A stretch of DNA of 15,755 bases from a virus. Taxonomy: Duplodnaviria; Heunggongvirae; Uroviricota; Caudoviricetes. Location of the stretch: IMG/VR virus record IMGVR_UViG_2690316188_000011. One strand, 5' to 3'. The notes under the pieces were generated by a model. That model searched no databases. It saw nothing but the letters and a program-made list of their open reading frames with translations, and had not been told where the DNA came from. Positions 1-15,755 of the stretch are shown here, one piece after another (position 1 is the stretch's first letter; every line of letters begins with the position of its first letter). The position numbers and the translations under genes are program-made.

Positions 1-297
1 CAGATCTCCAGCCAGGGACTATTGAGTACGAACGCCATCGACTTACGCGTGCGCAGGCCGACGCACAGGAACTGAAGAATGCCAGAGACTCCGCTGAAGT
101 GGTGGAAACCGCATTCTGTACTTTCGTGTTGTCGCGGATCGCAGGTGAAATTGCCAGTATTCTCGACGGGATCCCCCTGTCGGTGCAGCGGCGTTTTCCG
201 GAACTGGAAAACCGACATGTTGATTTCCTGAAACGGGATATCATCAAAGCCATGAACAAAGCAGCCGCGCTGGATGAACTGATACCGGGGTTGCTGA

Positions 298-323
<26 letters not shown>
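1..323 (+). CDS. nu1: Terminase small subunit gpNu1, 3' portion (gene wraps the circular junction; 5' portion at 15448-15755)
   Basis: Frame enters at the window edge with no start codon. Translation (...[55 protein letters not shown]...EYIEQSG) is the C-terminal half of lambda Nu1 as I recall it. Bases 1-85 are identical to 15671-15755. The stop at 321-323 lies 26 nt inside the next gene, as in lambda. The ORF-track entry 99-323 is an internal Met of this gene. Confidence 0.95.
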
Positions 324-4004
<3,681 letters not shown>

Positions 4005-4024
<20 letters not shown>

Positions 4025-5324
4025 TCTCCCGCATATTGCCAGCATGGCCTTTAATGAGCCGCTGATGCTTGAACCCGCCTATGCGCGGGTTTTCTTTTGT
4101 GCGCTTGCAGGCCAGCTTGGGATCAGCCGCCTGACGGATGCGGTGTCCGGCGACAGCCTGACTGCCCAGGAGGCACTCGCGACGCTGGCATTATCCGGTG
4201 ATGATGACGGACCACGACAGGCCCGCAGTTATCAGGTCATGAACGGCATCGCCGTGCTGCCGGTGTCCGGCACGCTGGTCAGCCGGACGCGGGCGCTGCA
4301 GCCGTACTCGGGGATGACCGGTTACAACGGCATTATCGCCCGTCTGCAACAGGCTGCCAGCGACCCGATGGTGGACGGCATTCTGCTCGATATGGACACG
4401 CCAGGCGGAATGGTGGCGGGGGCATTTGACTGCGCTGACATCATCGCCCGTGTGCGAGACATAAAACCGGTATGGGCGCTGGCCAACGACATGAACTGCA
4501 GTGCAGGTCAGCTGCTTGCCAGTGCCGCCTCCCGGCGTCTGGTCACGCAGACCGCCCGGACAGGCTCCATCGGCGTCATGATGGCTCACAGTAATTACGG
4601 TGCTGCCCTGGAGAAACAGGGTGTGGAAATCACGCTGATTTACAGCGGCAGCCATAAGGTGGATGGCAATCCCTACAGCCATCTTCCGGATGACGTCCGG
4701 GAGACACTGCAGTCCCGGATGGACGCAACCCGCCAGATGTTTGCGCAGAAGGTGTCGGCATATACCGGCCTGTCTGTGCAGGCTGTGCTGGATACCGAGG
4801 CTGCAGTGTACAGCGGTCAGGAGGCCATTGATGCCGGACTGGCTGATGAACTTGTTAACAGCACCGATGCGATCACCGTCATGCGTGATGCACTGGATGC
4901 GCGTAAATCCCGTCTCTCAGGAGGACGAATGACCAAAGAGACTCAATCAACAACTGTTTCAGCCACTGCTTCGCAGACTGACGTTACTGACGTGGTGCCA
5001 GCGACGGAGGGCGAAAACGCCAGCGCGGCGCAGCCGGACGTGAACGCGCAGATCACCGCTGCGGTTGCGGCAGAAAATAGCCGCATTATGGGGATCCTCA
5101 ACTGTGAGGAGGCTCACGGACGCGAAGAACAGGCCCGCGTGCTGGCAGAAACCCCCGGTATGACCGTGGAAACGGCCCGCCGCATTCTGGCAGCTGCACC
5201 ACAGAGTGCACAGGCGCGCAGTGACACTGCGCTGGATCGTCTGATGCAGGGGGCACCGGCACCGCTGGCTGCAGGTAACCCGGCATCTGATGCCGTTAAC
5301 GATTTGCTGAACACACCAGTGTAA
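4005..5324 (+). CDS. C: Capsid assembly protease / minor capsid protein gpC (GTG start)
   Basis: The ORF-track frame 3858-5324 contains the lambda gpC sequence from VTAELRNLPHIASMAFNEPLMLEP onward. GTG at 4005 is in frame and preceded by GAGGAGGAG (3992-4000); this gives a 439-aa product, the length of lambda gpC. The 5' end overlaps the B stop at 4022-4024. Confidence 0.9.
4719..5324 (+). CDS. nu3: Scaffolding protein Nu3, nested in frame within the 3' part of C
   Basis: In lambda, Nu3 is translated from an internal in-frame start in the last third of C. An in-frame ATG (MDATRQMFAQKVSAYTGL...) is present at 4719, the equivalent position. Not distinguishable from C by sequence alone. Confidence 0.55.
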   Translation: MDATRQMFAQKVSAYTGLSVQAVLDTEAAVYSGQEAIDAGLADELVNSTDAITVMRDALDARKSRLSGGRMTKETQSTTVSATASQTDVTDVVPATEGENASAAQPDVNAQITAAVAAENSRIMGILNCEEAHGREEQARVLAETPGMTVETARRILAAAPQSAQARSDTALDRLMQGAPAPLAAGNPASDAVNDLLNTPV

Positions 5325-5333
5325 GGGATGTTT

Positions 5334-5666
5334 ATGACGAGCAAAGAAACCTTTACCCATTACCAGCCGCTGGGCAACAGTGACCCGGCACATACGGCAA
5401 CCGCGCCCGGCGGATTGAGTGCGAAAGCGCCTGCAATGACCCCGCTGATGCTGGACACCTCCACCCGTAAGCTGGTTGCGTGGGATGGCACCACCGACGG
5501 TACTGCCGTTGGCATTCTGGCGGTTGATGCTGACCAGACCAGCACCACGCTGACGTTCTACAAGTCCGGCACGTTCCGTTATGAGGATGTGCTCTGGCCG
5601 GAGGCTGCCAGCGACGAGACGAAAAAACGGACCGCGTTTGCCGGAACGGCAATCAGCATCGTTTAA
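5334..5666 (+). CDS. D: Head decoration protein gpD
   Basis: 110-aa product from ATG 5334 ([43 protein letters not shown]...[11 protein letters not shown]) matches lambda gpD with about three substitutions. RBS AGGGA upstream. The ORF-track start at 5328 adds two residues absent from lambda D. Confidence 0.95.
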
Positions 5667-5684
5667 CCTTACCCTTCATCACTA

Positions 5685-5708
5685 AAGGCCGCCTGTGCGG
5701 CTTTTTTT
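5685..5708 (+). terminator. Hairpin plus T-run in the D-E intergenic region (attenuator/terminator-like)
   Basis: GCCGC (5688-5692), loop CTGT, GCGGC (5697-5701), then TTTTTTT (5702-5708). Sits in the 55-nt D-E gap, the same spacing as lambda. Confidence 0.4.
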
Positions 5709-5721
5709 ACGGGATTTTTTT

Positions 5722-5997
5722 ATGTCGATGTACACAACCGCCCAGCTGCTGGCGGCAAATGAGAAGAAATTTAAGTTTGATCCGCTGTTTCTGCGTCTCT
5801 TTTTCCGTGAGAGCTATCCCTTCACCACGGAGAAAGTCTATCTCTCACAAATTCCGGGACTGGTAAACATGGCGCTGTACGTTTCGCCGATTGTTTCCGG
5901 TGAGGTTATCCGCTCCCGTGGCGGCTCCACCTCTGAATTTACACCGGGATATGTCAAGCCGAAGCACTTAGCATGGCTTTCTGAGGCTTTCGTGTAG
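5722..5997 (+). pseudogene. E: Major capsid protein gpE, truncated: 83 N-terminal codons then unrelated sequence and a stop
   Basis: ATG 5722 gives MSMYTTAQLLAANEKKFKFDPLFLRLFFRESYPFTTEKVYLSQIPGLVNMALYVSPIVSGEVIRSRGGSTSEFTPGYVKPKH, colinear with lambda gpE (341 aa in lambda). After codon H83 (ends 5966) the frame reads LAWLSEAFV-stop, which is not E sequence. Downstream DNA is AT-rich and leads into the integrase gene. Confidence 0.85.
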
Positions 5998-6129
5998 TTG
6001 CTGGTTTTTACACTTAATCTTTTGATAATAAAGAATAAGTTTATCTGGTGCTTTCACTGAATTTTCCTCGTTATCTGTGTGTTGCAATCATCTCTGTATT
6101 GCAGCTTGTATTGCTTTTTGGGGCTAAAA

Positions 6130-7365
6130 ATGGCTGGCGAGAACAAACTGAGCGACAAAGCGCTTAAAGGATATCTGGGGAAACCCAGAGAAAAGCAGAT
6201 CACCATTGCTGATGGAAAGGGGCTTTCTATTCGTGTGAGTACTAAAGGGGCTGTGAGCTTTGTTTTCTTCTACAGGTTAGCAGGTGGCCGGGCTGCTCCG
6301 GTCTGGCTAACGTTGGGTAAATATCCTGATATGTCACTCAAACAGGCAAGGGAAAAGCGCGACGAGTGCCGTGGTTGGTTGGCTGACAAACGTGATCCGC
6401 GTATCCAGATTAAGATTCAGGCTGAAGAACGCTTAAAGCCGGTCACAGTGGAGGATGCACTAAATTACTGGTATGAAAATTACTGTAAGGTGCGTCGTAA
6501 AACTCATGCTGTAACGCTTGGCAGATTTCGAAAGCATATCTTTCCCTATATCGGTCATTTGCCCGTAAATGACACTCACCTATATGAATGGCTGGACTGT
6601 TTTGACCGAATTAAACGTAATGCACCAGTTATGGCGGCGTATGTTTTTTCTGACACTAAATTAGCTCTTCGTTTTTGTCGGGTACGCCAGTACGCGACGT
6701 GTGATGCTTTAAAGGATTTGCGCATGAGTGATGTGGGGCAGATTGCAGGTAAGCGGGATCGGGTTCTGGATGAAGCCGAACTCGGCCAGCTCTGGAAGGC
6801 AATTTTTGTCGAGCCTGATTTAAAACTAATGTCTGAATACACGCGAAAAATGTTTGTGCTTTGTACAGTATTTGGATGTCGAATGAGTGAAGCCCGATTA
6901 TCAGAATGGAGCGAATGGGATCTCGAAAGTTGGGTTTGGACTGTACCAAAAGATCACTCAAAAACTGGTGTTGAAATCGTCAGACCAGTACCTGAAATTC
7001 TACGACAGTGGGTAACGGATGTTCACGAAGAGACAAAACATACTGGTTATGTGCTGGGAAGTCTGCGAATTAGAGAAAGCGTAAGCAAGATTGGGGGGAA
7101 AATCGGTAAACGTTTGGGCCATGAAAAACAATGGTCACTACACGACCTTAGAAGAACGCTATCTACTCATCTAAGTGATCTCGGTGTTGAATTTTATGTA
7201 GTAGAACAACTGTTAGGCCATGCGCTACCTGGCGTGGCAGGTGTTTACAACCGGAGTAAGTTTATGGCTAAAAAACTGGATGCTCTGGAACTCTGGACTA
7301 CATATCTCAATAGCATCGCAGGTGCTGATTCAAAAGTGACAATCCTCAAACAAAAGGCTGGTTAA
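6130..7365 (+). CDS. int: Tyrosine recombinase / integrase, P4-family (PICI / CP4-57-like)
   Basis: Catalytic signature residues are visible: R in GCRMSEARL, H-x-x-R in SLHDLRRTL, H in LLGHALPG, Y in GVYNRSKF. Basic N-terminal arm-binding-like domain (MAGENKLSDKALKGYLGKPREKQITIADGKGLSIRV). Start placed at ATG 6130 rather than the upstream ORF-track start at 6079. Confidence 0.9.
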   Translation: MAGENKLSDKALKGYLGKPREKQITIADGKGLSIRVSTKGAVSFVFFYRLAGGRAAPVWLTLGKYPDMSLKQAREKRDECRGWLADKRDPRIQIKIQAEERLKPVTVEDALNYWYENYCKVRRKTHAVTLGRFRKHIFPYIGHLPVNDTHLYEWLDCFDRIKRNAPVMAAYVFSDTKLALRFCRVRQYATCDALKDLRMSDVGQIAGKRDRVLDEAELGQLWKAIFVEPDLKLMSEYTRKMFVLCTVFGCRMSEARLSEWSEWDLESWVWTVPKDHSKTGVEIVRPVPEILRQWVTDVHEETKHTGYVLGSLRIRESVSKIGGKIGKRLGHEKQWSLHDLRRTLSTHLSDLGVEFYVVEQLLGHALPGVAGVYNRSKFMAKKLDALELWTTYLNSIAGADSKVTILKQKAG

Positions 7366-7366
7366 C

Positions 7367-7588
7367 ATGAAAAAAATGGCAATTGTCGATAAAAAGGGTC
7401 TGGAGTACATTCCTAATATCGATCGTATGATCCGTGAGAAAGAATGTCGGGAGCTAACCACTCTTGCGAACAGCACACGCTGGAAGCTGGAGAAGGAAGG
7501 AAAATTTCCTAAGCGGATCAAGATTGGTTCCACTGCTGTTGCATATCGTCTTTCAGAAGTGCAGGCATGGATTAGGGGAGAGTGGTAA
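7367..7588 (+). CDS. alpA: AlpA-family HTH regulator / excisionase-like protein
   Basis: 73 aa; core ELTTLANSTRWKLEKEGKFPKRIKIGSTAVAYRLSEVQAWI fits the AlpA/MerR-like winged-HTH pattern. Lies immediately after int (stop TAA 7363-7365, start 7367), the usual int-alpA arrangement of Gram-negative PICI/P4-like elements. Confidence 0.8.
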   Translation: MKKMAIVDKKGLEYIPNIDRMIREKECRELTTLANSTRWKLEKEGKFPKRIKIGSTAVAYRLSEVQAWIRGEW

Positions 7589-7607
7589 GAATTTAGACAG
7601 TGGATGT

Positions 7608-7634
7608 AATCCTATGGGGTAAACCCATAGGATT
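7608..7634. terminator. Hairpin between convergent genes (candidate bidirectional terminator)
   Basis: AATCCTATGGG (7608-7618), loop GTAAA, CCCATAGGATT (7624-7634): perfect 11-bp stem. Lies between the alpA stop (7588) and the stop of the leftward 449-aa gene (7640). No strong T-tract on either side, so terminator function is uncertain. Confidence 0.4.
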
Positions 7635-7639
7635 TGAAA

Positions 7640-8989
7640 TCACTTAAATTCAAATACGTGCGTAGTTGATGAGATTATATAATTAGGTGGTAAGTATTGA
7701 ACTATTTCTCCATCTTCTTCAAAAATATGAATAACTCTTGGGAATAATTCAGGGCGTATAGGATTTAATGCCTTCGGATTATGAAACATGTATATTGCTG
7801 TACACCATGGTTCTTGATATGAAGGTGCATTGACAAGAGCAGTAAAAGGCATTGGGGTACAGCCTTCATCAGTTTTAATACCTCTAACGATGGATTTGAC
7901 ATTTTTTTGTTCAATCCCTGCCACTACTCCCATCCTATCAAATTTTGGGATGGTGGCATGTGTCGCAAGTAATATGGCTGAGACATTCTCATTTTTATTA
8001 GAGCCGAAAAAATTAGATTGTATACTTCGATTTTCAAATAAATGTTGTTCAATTTTACTTCCAGAATCCATATCTACACCATACAGATAGCTTTGTAGTG
8101 CTGGCATTGATATACTCATCGAAAATCTGCGTGAGTAATCGTGTAAAGCAATAATGAAAGGCTTTCCTTTTGTATGATCTAGTTCCCAATAGCATAATTT
8201 TAAGGGTTCAGGTTTATGCCTAACTTTCTTTAATAGAGTGCGGGCAAATTTGAATGGCATTTGTTCTTTTACATATCTCTGAAGATCTTCTACTGCCTCA
8301 TGATCAAGTATCAATTTCTCGGTAGGTTCCTCTTGTTCTGCAACTGTGGCAGCTTCTACAGCAATATCAATGCCATTTTTTGAGATAATATAATCAGGTT
8401 GAGCATAATCTCTGCATATTACGAAATCCATTTCGTAGAAAACTGCGTTTAGATAAAGTTCGAATAAGCGAGAGTTAAATGAAGCACTCTGGAAATCTCT
8501 GATGAATATTCCATCAGGATCTTTACACCAATAAGCTAACTCTTGCATAACAATAAATGCAGGATAGTGTTTGGGTTCCTCAAGTAGCATTCTTAGATAA
8601 ACGTTTTTTTTATGTTCTGGAACTTTGGCTAGGAATATTGAAAATGCCGACTCTGATTCGTCACCCTGTATAAAACAACCGTTCTTGTGTAGTGATAATA
8701 GCTCTGGTATGGCTTTTTCCATATCAGTAATTAAATCATCTTTAGATTCACGGGATACAATTACTTTAATCGCTCTAAATTTTTTATCTAAATCCCTACC
8801 TAGAAATATAGCGTTGTAATCATTATCTATTTTACAAAAAACAATTGTTGCTAAGATCGTGACATCATCCTTTATAAATTTGAACCAACAGATTTCCTCC
8901 GAAAAGGTTTTTACGTATGGTGTACGACCATAGAAAAATACATCAAATTGTTCTTTACTGATTTCTAGCATTTTGTGACTTGTTGTCAT
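7640..8989 (-). CDS. Hypothetical 449-aa protein, no family recognised; candidate defence/exclusion cargo
   Basis: Long uninterrupted minus-strand ORF in a visibly AT-rich segment. ATG at 8989 is preceded by AAGGA about 8 nt upstream. Starts 23 nt after the upstream RHH gene stop on the same strand (operon-like). I recognise no catalytic motif with confidence. Confidence 0.7.
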   Translation of the reverse strand: MTTSHKMLEISKEQFDVFFYGRTPYVKTFSEEICWFKFIKDDVTILATIVFCKIDNDYNAIFLGRDLDKKFRAIKVIVSRESKDDLITDMEKAIPELLSLHKNGCFIQGDESESAFSIFLAKVPEHKKNVYLRMLLEEPKHYPAFIVMQELAYWCKDPDGIFIRDFQSASFNSRLFELYLNAVFYEMDFVICRDYAQPDYIISKNGIDIAVEAATVAEQEEPTEKLILDHEAVEDLQRYVKEQMPFKFARTLLKKVRHKPEPLKLCYWELDHTKGKPFIIALHDYSRRFSMSISMPALQSYLYGVDMDSGSKIEQHLFENRSIQSNFFGSNKNENVSAILLATHATIPKFDRMGVVAGIEQKNVKSIVRGIKTDEGCTPMPFTALVNAPSYQEPWCTAIYMFHNPKALNPIRPELFPRVIHIFEEDGEIVQYLPPNYIISSTTHVFEFK

Positions 8990-9012
8990 AGAAGAATCCT
9001 TTATGCAAATTA

Positions 9013-9207
9013 TCAGCCTTTAGGTGTTATTCCTTGTTTTATTAGTTCGGCACGAGCCAGTTCTTTTAGCCAGTTACCTAAGCTCATCCCTTCTTTGGCA
9101 GCGACATTAACCATTTGTTCTTTTAATTCTGGGTTAATACGGACTTGGAATGCTGGTGCTTTACCTGCACCTTTCGGTTGTTTATCACGTTGAATGATAG
9201 TTGACAT
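9013..9207 (-). CDS. Ribbon-helix-helix (Arc/MetJ/CopG-like) DNA-binding protein
   Basis: 64 aa, MSTIIQRDKQPKGAGKAPAFQVRINPELKEQMVNVAAKEGMSLGNWLKELARAELIKQGITPKG. An alternating beta-strand segment (PAFQVRINP) followed by two short helices fits the RHH fold pattern. First gene of the leftward operon; a perfect inverted repeat abuts its start codon. Confidence 0.7.
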   Translation of the reverse strand: MSTIIQRDKQPKGAGKAPAFQVRINPELKEQMVNVAAKEGMSLGNWLKELARAELIKQGITPKG

Positions 9208-9249
9208 GTGTGTACCTATTGCTTAGTATGATTCTTGATAGGTACACAC
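9208..9249. promoter_or_regulatory. Operator-like perfect 12-bp inverted repeat in the divergent promoter region
   Basis: GTGTGTACCTAT (9208-9219) and ATAGGTACACAC (9238-9249) are exact reverse complements, 18 bp apart. The left arm directly abuts the RHH start codon. An extended -10-like TGcTATATA lies at 9265-9273, oriented rightward. Confidence 0.5.
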
Positions 9250-9346
9250 CTTATCATGTTTTATTGCTATATAACAACGCCCTGCAGTGCTCGCAACACA
9301 TACAGGGCGTCTAACCACCAACGATAGCAACAGTATCGAGGTAGCT

Positions 9347-9550
9347 ATGAGAAATCATACCACACACCCGCAAGGGCGGGATTCGCACAACCTGAATAAA
9401 TACATCTGGCGTTTTATCGCCCTGAGCACCGCACAACCACGCGTAATACACATCGAGGCCGCCAGCGAACAGGAAGCCCGCCAGCAATCCCCAACTGGCT
9501 ACGTGATGATATTCGCCGCCCGTATTCGTCAGGAGGTGTGCCGTGCTTAA
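9347..9550 (+). CDS. Hypothetical small protein (67 aa), weakly supported
   Basis: ATG 9347 preceded by GAGG (9338-9341). Its stop overlaps the next gene's start. No recognisable domain. A 98-aa ORF on the opposite strand (9311-9607) overlaps it and cannot be excluded. Confidence 0.3.
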   Translation: MRNHTTHPQGRDSHNLNKYIWRFIALSTAQPRVIHIEAASEQEARQQSPTGYVMIFAARIRQEVCRA

Positions 9551-9728
9551 AACCTTCCGTGTATTTGCCCGAGCTGTTAACCCACTGGGCCACACAATTG
9601 GTATCACTCAGAACGTGAAGGCTGTTAATGTTCAGACGGCTATTGCTGCGGTGAGAAGCGAATCATCAGAATATGGCTTATCACAAGTCATTATTTCAGC
9701 AGTGTATGAATTAAAAGAGGTGCATTAA
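9543..9728 (+). CDS. Hypothetical small protein (61 aa, GTG start)
   Basis: GTG 9543 preceded by AGGAGG (9531-9536) at 6-nt spacing. Stop TAA 9726-9728 overlaps the next ATG (TAATG). Confidence 0.45.
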   Translation: MLKTFRVFARAVNPLGHTIGITQNVKAVNVQTAIAAVRSESSEYGLSQVIISAVYELKEVH

Positions 9729-9919
9729 TGCAGGAAATCACATTACACGAAGCCGCTGAACGTGCGCACCAGACAGAAATTATTTGCCGCCTTCTTGAGG
9801 TATACCCGAACAAAATTACAGATGCTGATATATCCGCGCTGGCGAGCCTACTGGCGCGCCTTTCGGGAAGTGTCGCTAGTTTCCTGATTGAGGAAGAAAG
9901 TAAGCTGGTGGGGGATTAA
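9728..9919 (+). CDS. Hypothetical small protein (63 aa)
   Basis: ATG 9728 preceded by AAAGAGG (9714-9720). Followed immediately by the next ORF (TAA then ATG at 9920). Confidence 0.5.
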   Translation: MQEITLHEAAERAHQTEIICRLLEVYPNKITDADISALASLLARLSGSVASFLIEEESKLVGD

Positions 9920-10141
9920 ATGAATACAGAACGGGAAGTCTTTTTTAAATTGTTAGCATGTGCAGAAAGTTCATTAACTTTAAATAATTCAGCAAAAGCA
10001 ATATTAAATATGTGGCTTGATTGCATAAATGACAATGAAGATGCAAATATTGCTTATGGCCTGTTGTCACTTATTGATGAATCAGCAGAAAAACTCAATG
10101 ACGCAATAAATAGTGCCCTGCTATCAAATAAGTCGAGTTAA
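9920..10141 (+). CDS. Hypothetical small acidic protein (73 aa), markedly AT-rich gene
   Basis: ATG 9920 preceded by GGTGGGGGA (9907-9915). Composition visibly more AT-rich than its neighbours. Product looks helical and acidic (…LIDESAEKLNDAINSALL…). Confidence 0.5.
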   Translation: MNTEREVFFKLLACAESSLTLNNSAKAILNMWLDCINDNEDANIAYGLLSLIDESAEKLNDAINSALLSNKSS

Positions 10142-10158
10142 GTCGAGGAATAAATAAT

Positions 10159-10458
10159 ATGGAAATGAAAAATTCTGGCTTTATTGCCAGCGGCCCCGCT
10201 CGGCCTGAATTTATGAACGGCGATATTTACCGCGATAAATACGGCGGCACGGTAACGATTAAAGGCGTGGCAGAACGGCGCATCACTTACCGCCGTGAGG
10301 GGTATAGCTATGACTGCGTGATGCCTGTTTATCAGTTCCGGCGTGATTTTTCCCTGGTATATGCCGCACCCCGCAGTAAGCCCATCAGCAGGGAAAAAGC
10401 GCGGGGAAACATCCAGAAAATGAAAAGCATGATTAACGCATTCAGGGGCAAAAAATGA
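10159..10458 (+). CDS. Hypothetical 99-aa protein, translationally coupled to the primase gene
   Basis: ATG 10159 with GAGGAA (10145-10150) upstream. Stop TGA 10456-10458 overlaps the primase ATG 10455 (ATGA). Confidence 0.6.
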   Translation: MEMKNSGFIASGPARPEFMNGDIYRDKYGGTVTIKGVAERRITYRREGYSYDCVMPVYQFRRDFSLVYAAPRSKPISREKARGNIQKMKSMINAFRGKK

Positions 10459-12206
10459 AACTGGCACCGAACTTAAAAAAACAGCCACGCGACAGACTGA
10501 CAGAGGTAATCATCTTTGCAGGTAGTGATGCGTGGAGCCATGCGAAAGAGTGGCGGGAATGGGCGGGTAAACATATTGCCGCCGACGATGTGCCGCCTGT
10601 CGTGCTGGCTGATGAGCAACTGAAAAATATCACCGATTACCGGATCATTGATGAAGATCGTCAGTGTGTGCGTGTTTACCGCGCAGGACATATCACAGAG
10701 CACAGCATGACGCAGATTGTTACGTTACTGGCTGTGGCTGGAGTGAAGACCGTACACGAATACGCGGGGATTACTGACACCAGCCCAGTGGATTTATCCG
10801 AGCAGTTGCCGCGACTCAAAGAGGAATGCGAGCGTGGGGAAAGTCTGGTGCTTAATCTTCCGACGAAGCAAAAGGCGCAACTTTCACAGATGGCAGACAG
10901 TGAACGTGCACAACTACTTGCCGATCGCTTTGATGGTGTGTGTGTTCATGCAGAAAGTGAAATCGTCCACGTATGGCGCGGCGGGGTATGGTGTCCGGTC
11001 AGCACAATGGAGCTGAGCCGCGAAATGGTGGCGATCTATTCAGAGCACAGGGCCACGTTCAGCAAACGTGTAATCAATAACGCCGTGGAAGCGTTAAAAG
11101 TTATTGCCGACCCCATGGGGGAGCCGTCCGGTGATTTGCTACCGTTCACTAATGGTGTGCTTAACCTGAAAACGGGGGAATTTTCTCCGCACTCGCCGGA
11201 GCACTGGAGCACCACGCACAATGGCATTGAGTACACGCCACCAGTAGCAGGGGAAAACATCCGCGATAATGCGCCAAATTTCCATAAATGGCTTGAACAT
11301 GCTGCAAGAAAAGACCCGCGTAAGATGATGCGTATATGTGCCGCGTTATACATGATTATGGCGAACCGCTACGACTGGCAGATGTTCATTGAGGCCACCG
11401 GAGACGGGGGAAGCGGTAAGAGTACATTTACCCATATTGCCACCCTGCTTGCTGGCAAACAGAACACCGTAAGCGCGGAGATGACATCACTCGATGATGC
11501 AGGAGGGCGCGCGCAGGTTGTCGGGAGTCGTCTTATCGTCCTTGCCGATCAGCCGAAATATACGGGGGAAGGCACGGGCATCAAGAAAATCACGGGAGGC
11601 GATCCCGTTGAAATTAACCCGAAATATGAGAAGCGATTCACGACGATAATAAGGGCGGTGGTACTGGCAACCAATAACGACCCGATGATCTTTACCGAAC
11701 GGGCCGGAGGTGTGTCACGCCGTCGGGTGATTTTCCGGTTCGACAACATTGTAAGGGAGGACGAAAAAGACAAGGAATTACCGGAAAAGATAGCGGCAGA
11801 AATCCCCGTAATTATCCGCCGCTTGCTGGCTAATTTTGCTGCCCCTGAAAAGGCACGGGCTTTATTACTGGAACAGCGTGACGGTGATGAAGCTCTGGCA
11901 ATAAAGCAGCAAACGGATCCGGTTGTTGAGCTTTGCGCGGCGCTGGAGTTTCTGGAGGAAGCTCGTGGGCTAATGATGGGCGGTGGTGGTGACACCGTGA
12001 AGTACACGACCAGAAACAGCCTTTACCGTGTCTATATGGCCTTCATGGCATACACAGGAAAGGGGAAATGTTTGAGCGTGAATGAGTTCGGAAAGGCTAT
12101 GAGGTCAGCGGCGAAAGTTTACGGATATGAATATATTACGCGAAAAGTTAAGGGAGTCACGCAGACCAACGCAACGACTACTGATGATTGCGATGCGTTT
12201 TTATAA
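10455..12206 (+). CDS. Replication initiator: primase / SF3-helicase fusion (P4 alpha / D5-like NTPase)
   Basis: 583 aa. Walker A P-loop GDGGSGKST in the sequence ...FIEATGDGGSGKSTFTHIATLLAG..., with a Walker-B-like hydrophobic stretch plus acidic residue (RLIVLADQP) downstream. An iteron array follows the stop, as in P4-type and PICI pri-rep/ori modules. Confidence 0.85.
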   Translation: MKLAPNLKKQPRDRLTEVIIFAGSDAWSHAKEWREWAGKHIAADDVPPVVLADEQLKNITDYRIIDEDRQCVRVYRAGHITEHSMTQIVTLLAVAGVKTVHEYAGITDTSPVDLSEQLPRLKEECERGESLVLNLPTKQKAQLSQMADSERAQLLADRFDGVCVHAESEIVHVWRGGVWCPVSTMELSREMVAIYSEHRATFSKRVINNAVEALKVIADPMGEPSGDLLPFTNGVLNLKTGEFSPHSPEHWSTTHNGIEYTPPVAGENIRDNAPNFHKWLEHAARKDPRKMMRICAALYMIMANRYDWQMFIEATGDGGSGKSTFTHIATLLAGKQNTVSAEMTSLDDAGGRAQVVGSRLIVLADQPKYTGEGTGIKKITGGDPVEINPKYEKRFTTIIRAVVLATNNDPMIFTERAGGVSRRRVIFRFDNIVREDEKDKELPEKIAAEIPVIIRRLLANFAAPEKARALLLEQRDGDEALAIKQQTDPVVELCAALEFLEEARGLMMGGGGDTVKYTTRNSLYRVYMAFMAYTGKGKCLSVNEFGKAMRSAAKVYGYEYITRKVKGVTQTNATTTDDCDAFL

Positions 12207-12217
12207 AAAATGGCAAT

Positions 12218-12452
12218 GGTTATCTACCTTGTCTACCTGACTGAAAGAAAATACTTTTATTTCAATGTATTAATGCAGGTAGATAACTATTTTTCACTGT
12301 CTACCTGTTATCTACCTTATCTACCCATTTTTGTAGACAGGTAAGGAGACGGGTAGAGATGAGGTAGACAGCTATTTGGGGCTGTCTACCTCCCTGAAAC
12401 CCGCGCCATTACTGGCCTGATAACTAATCAGGTAGACAAGGTAGACAAGGTG
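12218..12452. repeat. Iteron array: candidate origin of replication
   Basis: About 11 copies of the core TCTACC / GGTAGA (extended TGTCTACC / GGTAGACA) in both orientations, for example 12223, 12232, 12278 (rev), 12300, 12311, 12320, 12352 (rev), 12363 (rev), 12385, 12431 (rev), 12440 (rev). An AT-rich spacer at 12241-12275 may be an unwinding element. Confidence 0.7.
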
Positions 12453-12495
12453 GTGGTGCACAAAAAACTTTTTAAACGAGGGGGTAAAAATAAAA

Positions 12496-12753
12496 ATGCA
12501 CACATCAGGAAAACTGAACAAACATATAAAGCCACATTACCGCGCCCTTGATATGGCTGAACACTGGCTAAGGGTGGCGATTAAGGCAATAGACCGCAAC
12601 GCCGGGGAAGGATACGCGAAAGCACATCCCGAACTGATAAGCGCATTCATGACAACGGCGGCTGCAAACTTTGCCACGCTGACCGAACGGGAGATTGCTG
12701 AAGCGGAGGAAGTGACAACAATCAATATTAAGTCCGGAGAGCAGGCAGCATGA
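12496..12753 (+). CDS. Hypothetical 85-aa protein, translationally coupled to the SSB-like gene
   Basis: ATG 12496 with GAGGGGG upstream. Stop TGA 12751-12753 overlaps ATG 12750 of the next gene. Confidence 0.5.
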   Translation: MHTSGKLNKHIKPHYRALDMAEHWLRVAIKAIDRNAGEGYAKAHPELISAFMTTAAANFATLTEREIAEAEEVTTINIKSGEQAA

Positions 12754-13199
12754 CGGCGCAAATATCAGTTTACGGGCGGTTGGTGGACGACCCGCAGACA
12801 AAACAGACCAGCAAGGGCACCCCCATGACGCTGGCGCGTATGGCGGTATCACTGCCCTGCAGTCAGTCGGATGACGGTCTGGCGACGTTGTGGTTATCTG
12901 TCCTGGCGTTTGGCAGACAAGCCGACGCGCTGGCAAAGCATCACAAAGGCGAACTCCTGAGCGTGGCGGGTAACATGCAGATGAGCCAGTGGACTGGACA
13001 GAACGGCGAAACGCGGCAGGGCTGGCAGGTTATCGCAGACAGCGTAATCAGTGCGCGATCGGTGCGACCGGGCGGCAAAAAAGGCCAACAGGGGCAGGCT
13101 ACTGACGCACTGAACAGAGCAAAACAACAGGCAGATCAGCAAGGAAGCCAGCCACCAGAGGGAGATAATGAGCAATGGGGAGATGATATCCCGTTTTAA
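12750..13199 (+). CDS. Single-stranded DNA-binding protein (SSB-like OB fold with acidic C-terminal tail)
   Basis: 149 aa. N-terminal pattern ISVYGRLVDDPQTKQT...WLSVLAFGRQAD resembles the SSB OB fold (VxGRL..DPE ... W..V..FG). Gly/Gln-rich linker and C-terminus ...EQWGDDIPF, which matches the conserved SSB tail motif DDDIPF. Confidence 0.75.
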   Translation: MTAQISVYGRLVDDPQTKQTSKGTPMTLARMAVSLPCSQSDDGLATLWLSVLAFGRQADALAKHHKGELLSVAGNMQMSQWTGQNGETRQGWQVIADSVISARSVRPGGKKGQQGQATDALNRAKQQADQQGSQPPEGDNEQWGDDIPF

Positions 13200-13217
13200 A
13201 TATTGCCAATAAAAAAA

Positions 13218-13241
13218 GCCGGAAAAAATAAATTTTCCGGC
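13218..13241 (-). terminator. Hairpin with U-tract on the minus strand (leftward terminator-like)
   Basis: GCCGGAAAA (13218-13226), loop AATAAA, TTTTCCGGC (13233-13241). The A-run at 13211-13217 becomes a U-tract 3' of the hairpin only for leftward transcripts. Confidence 0.4.
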
Positions 13242-13415
13242 ATGCTACATAAATCCCGACCAAAGGGAGTGAAGATATTAACACTAATTGTCCGCACTGA
13301 AGTTGTCACCCCAAAACTTTATACAACATTGCACTCGGTTGCATGTGTTCGCATGACAAATATCGGTGATAGCATATATCCACAATTATTTTTAATGAAT
13401 GCAAAGAGGATGCGT

Positions 13416-14456
13416 ATGGTTGATTTATATTCGCCTACCCAGCTTGTACAGGTGGTTAATGCTGTAGATGTACAAAAACAACTAAATGCGTTGTTTACCA
13501 GTTTGTTTTTTACTCGCTCGGTAATGTTTGGATCGCGCGATATTATTCTTGATACAATCGACGATCCAAATATCCCAATTGCAGCGTTTTGTTCTCCTAT
13601 GGTGGGTAGTAAAGTTTCACGTGACGAAGGGTACGAATCAAAAACAATTCGTCCAGGCTATATGAAGCCGAAAAGCAGCATTGATCCAAATAAGTTAGCT
13701 GTGCGCCCTGCTGGTGTATCACCTGAGCAATACAATGCTTTTGGGGCGCGTAATATTAAAGTTAAACAGGCGATTGTAAATCAAGCTAAAGCTATTCGTG
13801 CACGTATTGAATGGCTTGCCGTTCAGGCAATCACAACGGGGAAAAATATCATTGAGGGCGATGGTATTGAACGTTATGAGCTGGACTGGAATATTAAACC
13901 ACAAAATATCATCACTCAGTCTGGCGGTACTGAGTGGTCAGGTAAGGATAAAGAAACTTTTGATCCAAATGATGATATTGAGAGCTACGCAGAATTTAGT
14001 GAGGGCGTCACTAATATCATCATTATGGGCGGTAATGTATGGAAGAAATACCGTTCATTCAGAGCGATAAAAGAGGCTCTGGATACCCGTCGTGGTTCTA
14101 ATTCCGAACTGGAAACGGCCCTTAAAGACCTTGGTGATTCGGTGAGTTTTAAAGGATATATGGGCGATGTTGCGATTGTTGTTTACAGCGGGCGTTATAC
14201 CGACGAGGACGGAACTGAAAAACATTTCCTTGATCCTGATTTGATGGTGCTTGGCAATACGGCTCTTCAGGGGATTGTCGCCTATGGCGGTATTCAGGAT
14301 CCGGAGCTAATCCGAATGGGGCTGACTAAAGCCGAACTTGCACCGAAAAACTATATTGTGCCTGGTGATCCGGCTATTGAATATGTGCAGACACATTCAG
14401 CACCACAGCCAATACCGGCCCGCATCAATCGTTTTGTTACCGTTCGCATTGGCTAA
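13416..14456 (+). CDS. Major capsid protein, lambda gpE family, divergent paralogue
   Basis: From ATG 13416 (AGAGGA at 13405-13410): MVDLYSPTQL...RPGYMKPKS...NIITQSGGTEWSGKDKETFDPNDDIESYA...YRSFRAIKEALDTRRGSNSELETALKDLGDSVSFKGYMGDVAIVVYSGRY...MVLGNT... Colinear with lambda gpE as I recall it (E has NITQSGGTEWSKRDKSTYDPTDDIEAYA...FRSFKAVKEKLDTRRGSNSELETAVKDLGKAVSYKGMYGDVAIVVYSGQY...MVLGNT) but clearly diverged. The ORF-track start at 13203 is rejected because it runs through a hairpin and a non-coding-looking leader. Confidence 0.85.
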   Translation: MVDLYSPTQLVQVVNAVDVQKQLNALFTSLFFTRSVMFGSRDIILDTIDDPNIPIAAFCSPMVGSKVSRDEGYESKTIRPGYMKPKSSIDPNKLAVRPAGVSPEQYNAFGARNIKVKQAIVNQAKAIRARIEWLAVQAITTGKNIIEGDGIERYELDWNIKPQNIITQSGGTEWSGKDKETFDPNDDIESYAEFSEGVTNIIIMGGNVWKKYRSFRAIKEALDTRRGSNSELETALKDLGDSVSFKGYMGDVAIVVYSGRYTDEDGTEKHFLDPDLMVLGNTALQGIVAYGGIQDPELIRMGLTKAELAPKNYIVPGDPAIEYVQTHSAPQPIPARINRFVTVRIG

Positions 14457-14465
14457 GGGGGAGCA

Positions 14466-14807
14466 ATGGCTACTCATTACACTGAACTCATGGCTGGCAC
14501 TGAAGCACTGGTGACTACGCTGGGGATATTTTCAGCTAATAAAGGGGTAATTCCTGCATTTACGCCACTGATGCAGGAAGATGCAACAGGTGCACTGGTG
14601 GTATGGGATGGTTCGAGCGTAGGTAAAGCGGTTTATGTTTCCGCTGTACAAATCGACACCGCGAAAAAAACACAGGCTCAGGTCTATAAGACAGGTGTCT
14701 TAAATGTTGATGCTCTGAACTGGCCTGAGTCTGTAAAAGAACTGTCAGTAAAGATTGCAGCGTTTGTTGGCTCAGGTATTTCTGTTCAGCCGCTGGCTCG
14801 TGTGTAA
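14466..14807 (+). CDS. Head decoration protein, gpD-like, divergent paralogue
   Basis: 113 aa. Shares the gpD landmarks TPLM, WDG, YK(S/T)G, WPE and AF.G..IS (…AFTPLMQEDATGALVVWDGSSVG…QVYKTGVLNVDALNWPES…AAFVGSGISVQ) with lambda D (…[22 protein letters not shown]…[18 protein letters not shown]…[11 protein letters not shown]). RBS AAGGGGGAG. Confidence 0.75.
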   Translation: MATHYTELMAGTEALVTTLGIFSANKGVIPAFTPLMQEDATGALVVWDGSSVGKAVYVSAVQIDTAKKTQAQVYKTGVLNVDALNWPESVKELSVKIAAFVGSGISVQPLARV

Positions 14808-14818
14808 AGGGGGATACA

Positions 14819-15202
14819 ATGCAAAATGATTACAATGACCTTAAGCCAATTGCCGAAATGATGTACCCGAATCCAGCTGTAGAGGAATTAAAAGCTATCG
14901 CTGACAAAATGTGTTTAAGCGAGCGCCTTGTTGATATGAATCAGGTGATGGAAATTACAACCCTGAGTCGGCGTACACTGCTAAACCTTGAGGCTAGTGG
15001 AGAGTTCCCGGAGCGTGTGCAGGTTACGGAAGGGCGTAAGGCCTGGTATTTAAGTGAAGTGATCGACTGGATAAATAATATTCCTCGCGCTTCTGAATAT
15101 TGCCGCGTACCTGTCCCAAAAAAGCCAGATGCGGCGCTATGCCTCAAGATTGAGCGTGTACGCCGCAATGCACGGGATGGTCGCTATAAGCTGATTGGTT
15201 GA
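14819..15202 (+). CDS. AlpA/MerR-like winged-HTH protein next to cos; candidate packaging-redirection (Rpp-like) factor
   Basis: 127 aa. Central segment MNQVMEITTLSRRTLLNLEASGEFPERVQVTEGRKAWYLSEVIDWI fits the AlpA / Nu1-N-terminal HTH pattern. Last gene before cos; RBS AAGGGGGA as in the two capsid genes. Confidence 0.55.
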   Translation: MQNDYNDLKPIAEMMYPNPAVEELKAIADKMCLSERLVDMNQVMEITTLSRRTLLNLEASGEFPERVQVTEGRKAWYLSEVIDWINNIPRASEYCRVPVPKKPDAALCLKIERVRRNARDGRYKLIG

Positions 15203-15227
15203 TGAAATTAGGGCCCGCTCTGGCTGG

Positions 15228-15447
15228 CGGGTCCTTTCCGGCGATCTGACAGGCTACGGGGCGTCAGGCGCGCGGATTTTCGCTATTTATGAAAATTTTC
15301 CGGTTTAAGGCGTTTCCGTTCTTCTTCGTCGTAACTTAATGTTTTTATTTAAAATACCCCCTGAAAAGAAAGGAAACGACAGGTGCTGAAAGCGAGCTTT
15401 TTGGCCTCTGTCGTTTCCTTTCTCTGTTTTTGTCCGTGGAATGAACA
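15228..15447. other. Lambdoid cos packaging site (cosQ-like, cosN-equivalent 15259-15270, cosB with R3/R2/R1 Nu1-binding elements)
   Basis: Colinear with the lambda right-end/left-end junction as I recall it. cosQ-like GGGTCCTTTCCGGCGATCTGACAGGCTACG. cosB CGCGGATTTTCGCTATTTATGAAAATTTTCCGG... with CGTTTCC at 15311-15317 (R3), GGAAACG at 15372-15378 (R2) and CGTTTCC at 15412-15418 (R1); R2 and R1 form an inverted repeat (GGAAACGACAG / CTGTCGTTTCC). Ends at the Nu1 start codon. Confidence 0.8.
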
Positions 15448-15755
15448 ATGGAAGTCAACAAAAAGCAGCTGGCTGACATTTTCGGTGCGAGTATCCGTAC
15501 CATTCAGAACTGGCAGGAACAGGGAATGCCCGTTCTGCGAGGCGGTGGCAAGGGTAATGAGGTGCTTTATGACTCTGCCGCCGTCATAAAATGGTATGCC
15601 GAAAGGGATGCTGAAATTGAGAACGAAAAGCTGCGCCGGGAGGTTGAAGAACTGCGGCAGGCCAGCGAGGCAGATCTCCAGCCAGGGACTATTGAGTACG
15701 AACGCCATCGACTTACGCGTGCGCAGGCCGACGCACAGGAACTGAAGAATGCCAG
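15448..15755 (+). CDS. nu1: Terminase small subunit gpNu1, 5' portion (continues at 1-323 across the circular junction)
   Basis: ATG 15448 gives [102 protein letters not shown], matching the lambda Nu1 N-terminus. It runs off the window end in the same frame in which position 1 enters. Confidence 0.95.
15671..15755. repeat. 85-bp terminal overlap identical to bases 1-85 (circular closure of the record)
   Basis: Exact identity of 15671-15755 with 1-85 (CAGATCTCCAGCCAGGGACTATTGAGTACG...GAAGAATGCCAG). Reading frames are continuous across the join. Confidence 0.9.

Follow-up and report, generated by a model that had tools for sequence, protein, structure and literature searches.

A Helper-embedded Satellite in the Capsid Gene E of a Lambda-like Prophage, Seen in a 15,755-bp Viral Record

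Introduction

The window analyzed here, the whole 15,755-base stretch of IMG/VR virus record IMGVR_UViG_2690316188_000011, places head genes of a lambda-like phage directly beside the genes of a phage satellite, and bases 1–85 recur exactly as bases 15671–15755. The question raised by this locus is how the two kinds of DNA came to be joined. The original prediction correctly recognized a satellite of the phage-inducible chromosomal island (PICI) or P4 type next to lambdoid helper DNA and proposed a recombinant with one illegitimate join in the major capsid gene E and one crossover in a shared cos region or, alternatively, an assembly chimera. We find that satellites of this kind, located in the major capsid gene of a prophage related to lambda, have been described before, that the present one is at its normal integration site, and that nothing unusual has been spliced. 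With a probability of about 85%, the window as a whole is an ordinary stretch of E. coli chromosome that runs from the middle of Nu1 of the helper to the middle of terS of the embedded satellite, which is a PICI of the helper-embedded type (HE-PICI) in gene E. This HE-PICI is already catalogued; the result is a correct re-identification and not a discovery.

Results and Discussion

The Join in Gene E

Comparisons were made with related loci (L001, L002, L032–L041, and others, comprising chromosomes, large contigs, and IMG/VR contexts), and genome counts refer to 5426 complete E. coli genomes. Positions 1–5966 of the window are 98% identical to the head genes of lambda and of many lambdoid phages. 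The alignment bears out the earlier description of this flank as lambda-like but not the cos and the Nu1 start that were placed there: the left end of the window has neither, base 1 corresponding approximately to codon 75 of Nu1. The continuity with lambda seen at this end apparently arose because the first 85 bases are the same as the last 85. Identity to lambda E ends after nucleotide 245 of the gene (codon 82; window position 5966), essentially where the cut had been predicted (codon 83), and the GC content steps from 0.57 to 0.45 across the junction. The frame of the truncated gene, E′, reads on into the satellite to a stop codon at 5995–5997, and in L001 and L002 E′ is annotated as a partial major capsid protein.

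Aligned with intact lambda E, the gene is cleanly split, and the 10-bp sequence AGCCGAAGCA is directly repeated as the core of the left (attL) and right (attR) attachment sites. In complete chromosomes the attR core lies beyond the end of the window by ~1.4 kb. Both copies of the core are present in L001, L002, and L032–L041 at a spacing of 11,054–11,398 bp, with 13,897 bp in the locus that carries an IS66-family insertion, and the element of the closest loci is 11,189 bp (~11.2 kb) long from core to core. Removal of the element restores E exactly, and the remainder of E follows attR in L001, L002, and L033–L040. The part of the satellite inside the window is ~9.8 kb long, and the final 1.4 kb, consisting of the 3′ half of terS, a DUF2971 gene, and attR, lies outside. 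The attL junction occurs in 173 of the 5426 genomes and in at least two prophage backgrounds, one Qin-like (L001) and one of another lambdoid type (L002). Because the core is repeated at attR, the junction recurs in these 173 genomes, and the site is a published one (E:Phage_cap_E:80), what connects E to the island is a tyrosine integrase's site-specific attL and not the illegitimate join first proposed. The native att sites, which the original prediction suggested might be defined by a search of related genomes, are the attL and attR described here.

An assembly chimera of unrelated lambda and satellite DNA would account for the sharp GC step at 5966 and for a window that ends in a repeat. 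However, the same junction of E′ with int and the whole arrangement, with a matching attR, are present in 73–173 independently finished genomes, and at least 80% of the window is found in one place in 73 complete genomes. Since complete genomes carry it, a chimera is refuted for the E junction; the window is not a gross chimera, and an origin of this kind is very improbable. The window (1–15755) is colinear with L036, L034, L040, and L041 in ungapped alignments at 99.0–99.35% identity, the value for the reverse complement of L036 (2362–18116) being 99.35%. CP010238 (L032) is 100% identical to window positions 348–7357 over 7010 nt and, on the other side of IS66, has 5 mismatches in the 8409 nt that correspond to 7347–15755.

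Two related loci depart from this arrangement. In L032 (CP010238.1) int is interrupted by the IS66-family element, of ~2.7 kb, between E′ and alpA, and this satellite copy is probably immobilized by the insertion. In L035 (11402–13198) a truncated gpA of 279 residues lies immediately next to the satellite alpA. The genes int, E′, D, C, B, and W are absent from it, and its right flank is something other than E; the locus is a degraded composite with a deletion between helper and satellite.

Relationship to the Published HE-PICI Family

HE-PICIs were described by Tommasini, Mageeney, and Williams in 2023 (NAR Genom Bioinform, PMC10111431). The prototype, Eco567.11capE of E. coli NRG857c (11capE), is an island of 11 kb, inserted in a capsid gene of the lambda-E type, that has a 10-bp identity block and a capsid gene of its own. 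There are 201 instances at the site E:Phage_cap_E:80, and the published identity blocks at this site include AGCCGAAGCA and AACCCAAGCA. The family motif is doubled, tgTGTATTGCantgTGTATTGCa, with copies 81 ± 2 bp upstream and 132 ± 2 bp downstream of the center of attP (all PMC10111431).

The attL alignment and the core in the published supplement are identical to the window sequence (PMC10111431). The doubled arm motif of the window, in which two copies of TGTATTGC are separated by four bases, has a single exact match, as compared with 0.01 expected, and this match starts at +133.5 bp from the center of the core. In 12 related loci, ~81.5 bp separate the end of the upstream partner copy from the attR core, and both arm copies are at the published spacing. 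Gene E is cut near codon 80 in terms of the Phage_cap_E profile, with no replacement sequence; int, alpA, and the primase gene are on the plus strand, as are Nu1 through E′; and the identity block is present both in the window and at attR of the related loci. The integrase has a domain architecture that fits HE-PICIs, and the near-identical element of CP010238 is in the authors' list; by these two comparisons the integrase is a candidate member of the HE-PICI clade. In the supplement, CP010238.1/3534073–3547969 is HE-PICI Eco4425.14.E_Phage_cap_E_80 (PMC10111431). The satellite is assigned to the published family because its attL sequence, core, and doubled motif with its spacing match those in the paper and because the near-identical element of CP010238 is catalogued there.

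The Satellite cos and terS

The original prediction ended the island, with a length of ~9.3 kb, at about 15227, where it was taken to meet lambda cosQ. Similarity to lambda does resume at 15227, but the island continues past this point to its full 11,189 bp, through terS and then a DUF2971 gene to attR in related chromosomes. Between 15227 and 15755 the window has 2 differences from the satellite copies in related genomes and at least 13 from the helper copies, and the segment is therefore assigned to the satellite: it is the satellite's own cos and the start of its terS rather than a junction to lambda cosQ. The sole cos of the window (~15222–15447) belongs to the island. With this assignment and the colinearity of the window with chromosomes, a crossover in a shared cos is not needed.

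The full terS gene, present in L002 and L032–L041 (17809–18360 in the reverse complement of L036), encodes 183 residues that match Pfam Phage_Nu1. Codons 1–102 are exactly those of helper Nu1, and the C-terminal 80 residues are ~40% identical. Judged from its sequence, terS is a mosaic of the DNA-binding half of Nu1 and a divergent half that corresponds to the gpA-binding half. Satellite copies of the L001 type are without terS.

The satellite cosN, GGGCGTCAGGCG, differs from that of lambda, GGGCGGCGACCT, at 5 of 12 bases, all of them in the right half. All 12 of the satellite copies have this variant, and the helper copies are canonical in 13 of 14 cases; the helper of L033 has an intermediate form, GGGCGGAAGGCG. 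With 5 differences between their 12-nt ends in the genomes examined, the helper and the satellite embedded in it would not have complementary cohesive ends. The variant cosN was considered as a satellite-specific device and rejected as such, three lambdoid prophage contexts in IMG/VR (L052, L082, and L092) having GGGCGTCAGGCG before Nu1-gpA.

The Terminal Repeat and the Apparent Circle

The 85-mer found at both ends of the window is present in helper Nu1 and again in satellite terS, at 5437 and 20972 of L002 and at 2362 and 18032 of L036. It ends precisely at the point where terS and Nu1 diverge and begins right after 15670, a position at which several genomes have different bases in their two copies. 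The window mimics a circle since both of its ends fall on one 85-bp stretch common to the two genes. The circular look, and the impression that the satellite abuts a lambda cos, arise because the 5′ half of Nu1 is also that of terS and because the same 85 bp stand at both ends of the window. The view that lambda DNA occupies the place where attP would be expected rested on reading the window as a circle and falls with it. An overlap bounded by branch points on both sides is typical of a contig whose two ends fall on a single shared node in the graph of an assembly.

Several points weigh against reading the window as plain chromosome with a mobile HE-PICI in it. The authors recovered no particles for 11capE and showed only its excision and replication (PMC10111431), the mobilization of this satellite group is a prediction by analogy with that prototype, and the roles given to the satellite capsid, decoration, helix-turn-helix (HTH), and TerS proteins are putative ones assigned from sequence. 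The bases at 15642 and 15670 of the window are also against it. Both are G, as compared with A at both positions in 13 of 13 satellite terS copies, and the G,G combination was seen only in helper Nu1 copies, lambda among them; no IMG/VR contig has satellite cosN together with G,G at these positions. Because these are helper-type alleles, the helper copy may be the source of the last 115–380 nt of the window, through a copy switch inside the repeat, whereas cosN and 15227–15376 are satellite-type. The G,G alleles could have arisen from the choice made by an assembler in a copy-identical stretch, from polymorphism or gene conversion, or from a real recombinant.

If a real recombinant is the source, the 15,670-bp loop would be an actual molecule formed through RecA- or lambda Red-mediated homologous recombination of the cos-terS 5′ segment of the satellite with the cos-Nu1 5′ segment of the helper. 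These are co-oriented repeats of ~530 bp, 15.7 kb apart, that would pop out a circle or make a tandem, and the product would hold int, the replicon, cos, full Nu1, A, W, B, C/Nu3, and D together with the satellite capsid and decoration genes. This would be late gene capture of the kind proposed for elongated PICIs, and such capture has been proposed next to the E:80 site for Eco6102.18 (CP023644.1), a published 18-kb element that may contain a captured helper segment (PMC10111431). The 85-bp overlap of the window ends is consistent with a loop, the long repeat is nearly the same in both copies (in L036 they match at all 379 nt from 15377 to 15755), and helper-type bases at 15642 and 15670 beside a satellite-type cosN and 15227–15376 form the pattern of a crossover inside the repeat. 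However, an overlap bounded by the copy-differing position 15670 and by the divergence point of terS and Nu1 fits a shared graph node in a sample that contains both normal copies and does not suit an arbitrary cut of a circle. The junction that the circle would have, with the satellite HTH gene and cos followed by full Nu1 and A, was found in none of the 5426 complete genomes and in none of 56 informative IMG/VR contexts. In addition, when compared with the L002 and L040 helpers, position 15657 has the satellite-type base, and G at 15642 and 15670 with this base does not fit a single crossover with these helpers. We regard recombination of this kind as an unlikely source of the window. That the closed 15.67-kb loop is genuine, and that the satellite acquired the terminase-portal-protease-decoration block of the helper (Nu1, A, W, B, C/Nu3, D) through the shared cos/terS segment, is quite unlikely.

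The near agreement between the length of the window and the distance between the two cos sites, which are co-oriented and ~15.6 kb apart, would suit a packaged fragment, for which terminase would start at the helper cos of the unexcised composite and, 15.7 kb downstream, end at the satellite cos, closure by the cohesive ends following. This in situ packaging from cos to cos is exceedingly improbable and was rejected. The window ends and their overlap are not at cosN but ~410 bp from it, in the coding sequence of Nu1/terS. On the cosB side, 15271–15376 is satellite-type at every discriminating site, where helper-type bases would be expected, and the helper and satellite ends, with their 5 differences, would not anneal. 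A length of 15.7 kb, about one-third of the lambda genome, also lies below the packaging minimum of lambda. An ordinary stretch of chromosome, read from one copy of the shared repeat to the other, remains the preferred account of the window.

Gene Content of the Satellite and Its Helper

The features of the helper and of the integrated HE-PICI are listed in Table 1. The gene list originally given for the island (int, alpA, pri-rep with an iteron origin, SSB, capsid genes, and an HTH gene before cos) holds. Profile searches identified an integrase, AlpA, a D5_N/DUF5906 primase, SSB, Phage_cap_E, HDPD, and an AlpA-type HTH protein, and RTCTACCT iterons are present in nine copies, all of them in 12222–12446, as compared with 0.46 expected. 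With int, alpA, pri-rep and an adjacent origin, a size within ~10–15 kb, and no tail or lysis genes, the satellite has the general characters of Gram-negative PICIs.

The slot between alpA and the icd-like gene contains cargo, which in this satellite is the anti-phage defense protein PD-T7-1 and in other satellite copies (L001 and L002) consists of DUF2971 and SWIM genes. The 449-residue PD-T7-1 protein has no Pfam or NCBIfam match, and the exact protein occurs in 407 blocks of a public collection. PD-T7-1 comes from the E. coli screen of Vassallo et al., in which the protection reported was stronger against T-even phages than against T7 (bioRxiv 10.1101/2022.05.12.491691). A second variable slot is located at the right end of the satellite, outside the window, between terS/cos and attR (31508–32443 in L001, 21407–22165 in L002, and the reverse strand of L033); depending on the copy, it contains a 311-residue hypothetical protein, DUF2971, or a 438-residue AF_1680-family protein.

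A promoter-like TTGACA-17-TAGTAT at 9201–9229 on the plus strand is just 5′ of the operon of the icd-like and replication genes, and a 64-residue open reading frame (ORF) without an assigned function (9013–9207, minus strand) diverges from it. The region 9013–9229 may be the early control region of the satellite. In a promoter and terminator scan of the window nothing exceeded the shuffled expectation, and the terminator scan gave no plus-strand terminator-like site between E′ and int.

The 127-residue HTH protein encoded before cos matches AlpA (8c3t) in the Protein Data Bank (PDB) at 2e-9, and it is conserved at this length across Enterobacteriaceae. No match to RppC was obtained in the PDB sequence search at E ≤ 1. 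An AlphaFold model from a 20-sequence alignment had a predicted local distance difference test score (pLDDT) of 54 and a predicted template modeling score (pTM) of 0.30 and was too poor for a fold search.

Table 1. Features of the window, with coordinates in window positions and the basis of each assignment
Feature	Coordinates	Strand	Basis and remarks
Helper lambdoid prophage head/packaging genes	1–5721	+	98% identity to lambda and relatives; translations; Pfam labels in related loci
Nu1, 3′ part	1–323	+	3′ two-thirds
A	298–2223	+	
W	2220–2426	+	
B	2423–4024	+	
C/Nu3	4005–5324	+	
D	5334–5666	+	
E′, first 82 codons of helper major capsid gene	5722–5966	+	Alignment to lambda E
attL core AGCCGAAGCA, 10 bp	5957–5966	+	Identity block common to attL and attR
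Doubled arm-type motif TGTATTGCAGCTTGTATTGC (TGTATTGC-N4-TGTATTGC)	6095–6114	+	P′ arm of HE-PICI attP
Tyrosine integrase, 411 aa	6130–7365	+	Pfam Arm-DNA-bind_3 4e-19, Phage_integrase 1e-16
AlpA, 73 aa, excisionase/activator type	7367–7588	+	Pfam Phage_AlpA 2.7e-15
Cargo, PD-T7-1 anti-phage defense protein, 449 aa	7640–8989	−	PADLOC PD-T7-1 E = 1.3e-153, full length; GC 34.5%
Small early genes	9287–10458	+	Include three ORFs of 61–73 aa
Icd-like	9287/9347–9550	+	NCBIfam phage_ICD_like 1e-19
DUF4222	10159–10458	+	Pfam DUF4222 9e-24
Primase/replicase, 583 aa, D5_N + DUF5906	10455–12206	+	Pfam
Iteron-type replication origin	12219–12447		Just 3′ of replicase gene; iterons and repeat families D1–D3, D6, D10
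ORF, 85 aa	12496–12753	+	
SSB	12750–13199	+	Pfam SSB 2e-15
Satellite's own major capsid protein (putative), 346 aa	13416–14456	+	Pfam Phage_cap_E 4e-41; 42% identity to lambda E
Head decoration protein (putative), 113 aa	14466–14807	+	Pfam HDPD 4e-15; 34% identity to lambda D
AlpA-family winged-HTH protein (putative), 127 aa	14819–15202	+	Pfam Phage_AlpA 8e-9; directly 5′ of cos
Satellite cos: cosQ-like GGGTCCT region, variant cosN, lambda-type cosB	15222–15447	+	Alignments with lambda, helper, and satellite copies
Satellite-type cosN GGGCGTCAGGCG	15259–15270	+	cosN type by context
Satellite's own terS (putative), first 102 codons	15448–15755	+	ATG at 15448; cut by window end; full gene elsewhere

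Comparison with Known Satellites

The satellite resembles the prototype 11capE in its site, 10-bp identity block, attL, doubled arm motif with its spacing, and orientation relative to the late genes of the helper. Both are ~11 kb long and have the same four zones (int and alpA, a variable zone, replication, and a late zone that carries cos as well as a capsid gene similar to E). They differ in that the prototype is said to lack terS, whereas the satellite of the window has the 183-residue Phage_Nu1 terS after cos, and in that the latter has the PD-T7-1 cargo and the core AGCCGAAGCA instead of AACCCAAGCA, both cores being in the published set.

Among cos PICIs of Gram-negative bacteria, EcCICFT073 serves as the model (Fillol-Salom et al., 2018, ISME J, PMC6092414; 2019, Mol Cell, PMC6739421). 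It likewise has int, alpA, and pri-rep with a 3′ origin, homologues of capsid (c1499) and decoration (c1500) proteins, a DNA-binding protein, and a lambda-like cos, and it likewise depends on a lambdoid helper, a dependence that is predicted for the satellite of the window. EcCICFT073 differs in having a chromosomal site, no recognizable phage cosB, and Rpp, which retargets the TerS of the helper. In contrast, the satellite of the window has a cosB almost identical to that of lambda and its own terS with the DNA-binding half of Nu1. The Rpp mechanism does not fit this satellite, given a cosB like that of lambda, the presence of a terS, and a 127-residue HTH protein that has no sequence similarity to RppC in the search described above.

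Capsid-forming PICIs (cf-PICIs) are satellites that encode their own major capsid protein and small terminase, and the satellite of the window shares this property. Between attL and attR, however, Pfam searches found only capsid, decoration, and terS genes of the cf-PICI module and no portal, protease/scaffold, TerL, or connector genes. The portal, protease, and TerL genes of this type in the window belong to the helper and are 98% identical to those of lambda.

P4-like satellites have psu, sid, and delta genes, a CI (C4/isrK) immunity RNA, and a P2-type cos. The satellite of the window is similar to them in having an integrase of the P4-family clade, AlpA, an Icd-like gene, a D5-type primase, a length of ~11 kb, and a variable slot with defense genes. 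In contrast, its cos is lambda-type, no homologues of Psu, Sid, or Delta were found in Pfam scans, and there were no Rfam matches to P4-type CI (C4/isrK) or seqA RNAs at the gathering score.

Predicted Life Cycle

The architecture consists of att sites, co-orientation with the late operon of the helper, an autonomous replicon with primase and iterons, a lambda-type cos, and the mosaic terS. For 11capE, mitomycin C causes the composite of helper and satellite to excise and replicate, after which the satellite excises and E is restored, and late transcription and helper replication have been proposed to carry over passively into the embedded element (PMC10111431). Related PICIs of the EcCICFT073 type are packaged by lambda terminase through cos into full-size heads, and deletion of the capsid and decoration homologues of EcCICFT073 did not relieve interference (PMC6092414, PMC6739421).

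By analogy with these two elements, the satellite would be carried passively in the prophage, and on induction the composite would excise and replicate as 11capE does. Late transcription would then read into the satellite, and Int with AlpA would excise it, restoring E. The satellite would replicate from its own origin, and the helper terminase would package it through the lambda-type cos. We suggest a possible role in packaging for the mosaic TerS, which combines the DNA-binding half of Nu1 with a TerL-binding half that has diverged; it could bind cosB as Nu1 does and engage gpA differently.

Implications

Lambdoid prophages with satellites in their capsid gene were reported in 2023, and the catalogue of that paper already includes an element nearly identical to the present one (PMC10111431). 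For genome scans, a composite prophage in which the cos and terS 5′ segment of the satellite equals the cos and Nu1 segment of the helper yields contigs that start and end in the same repeat and so pass for "viral genomes" that are small, circular, and bounded by direct terminal repeats. The shared cos/terS repeat is also a plausible substrate for the late gene capture proposed for elongated PICIs. If the 15.67-kb loop were real, it would be a concrete intermediate of late gene capture and a snapshot of an ordinary PICI becoming nearly autonomous for its capsid, built of lambda parts.

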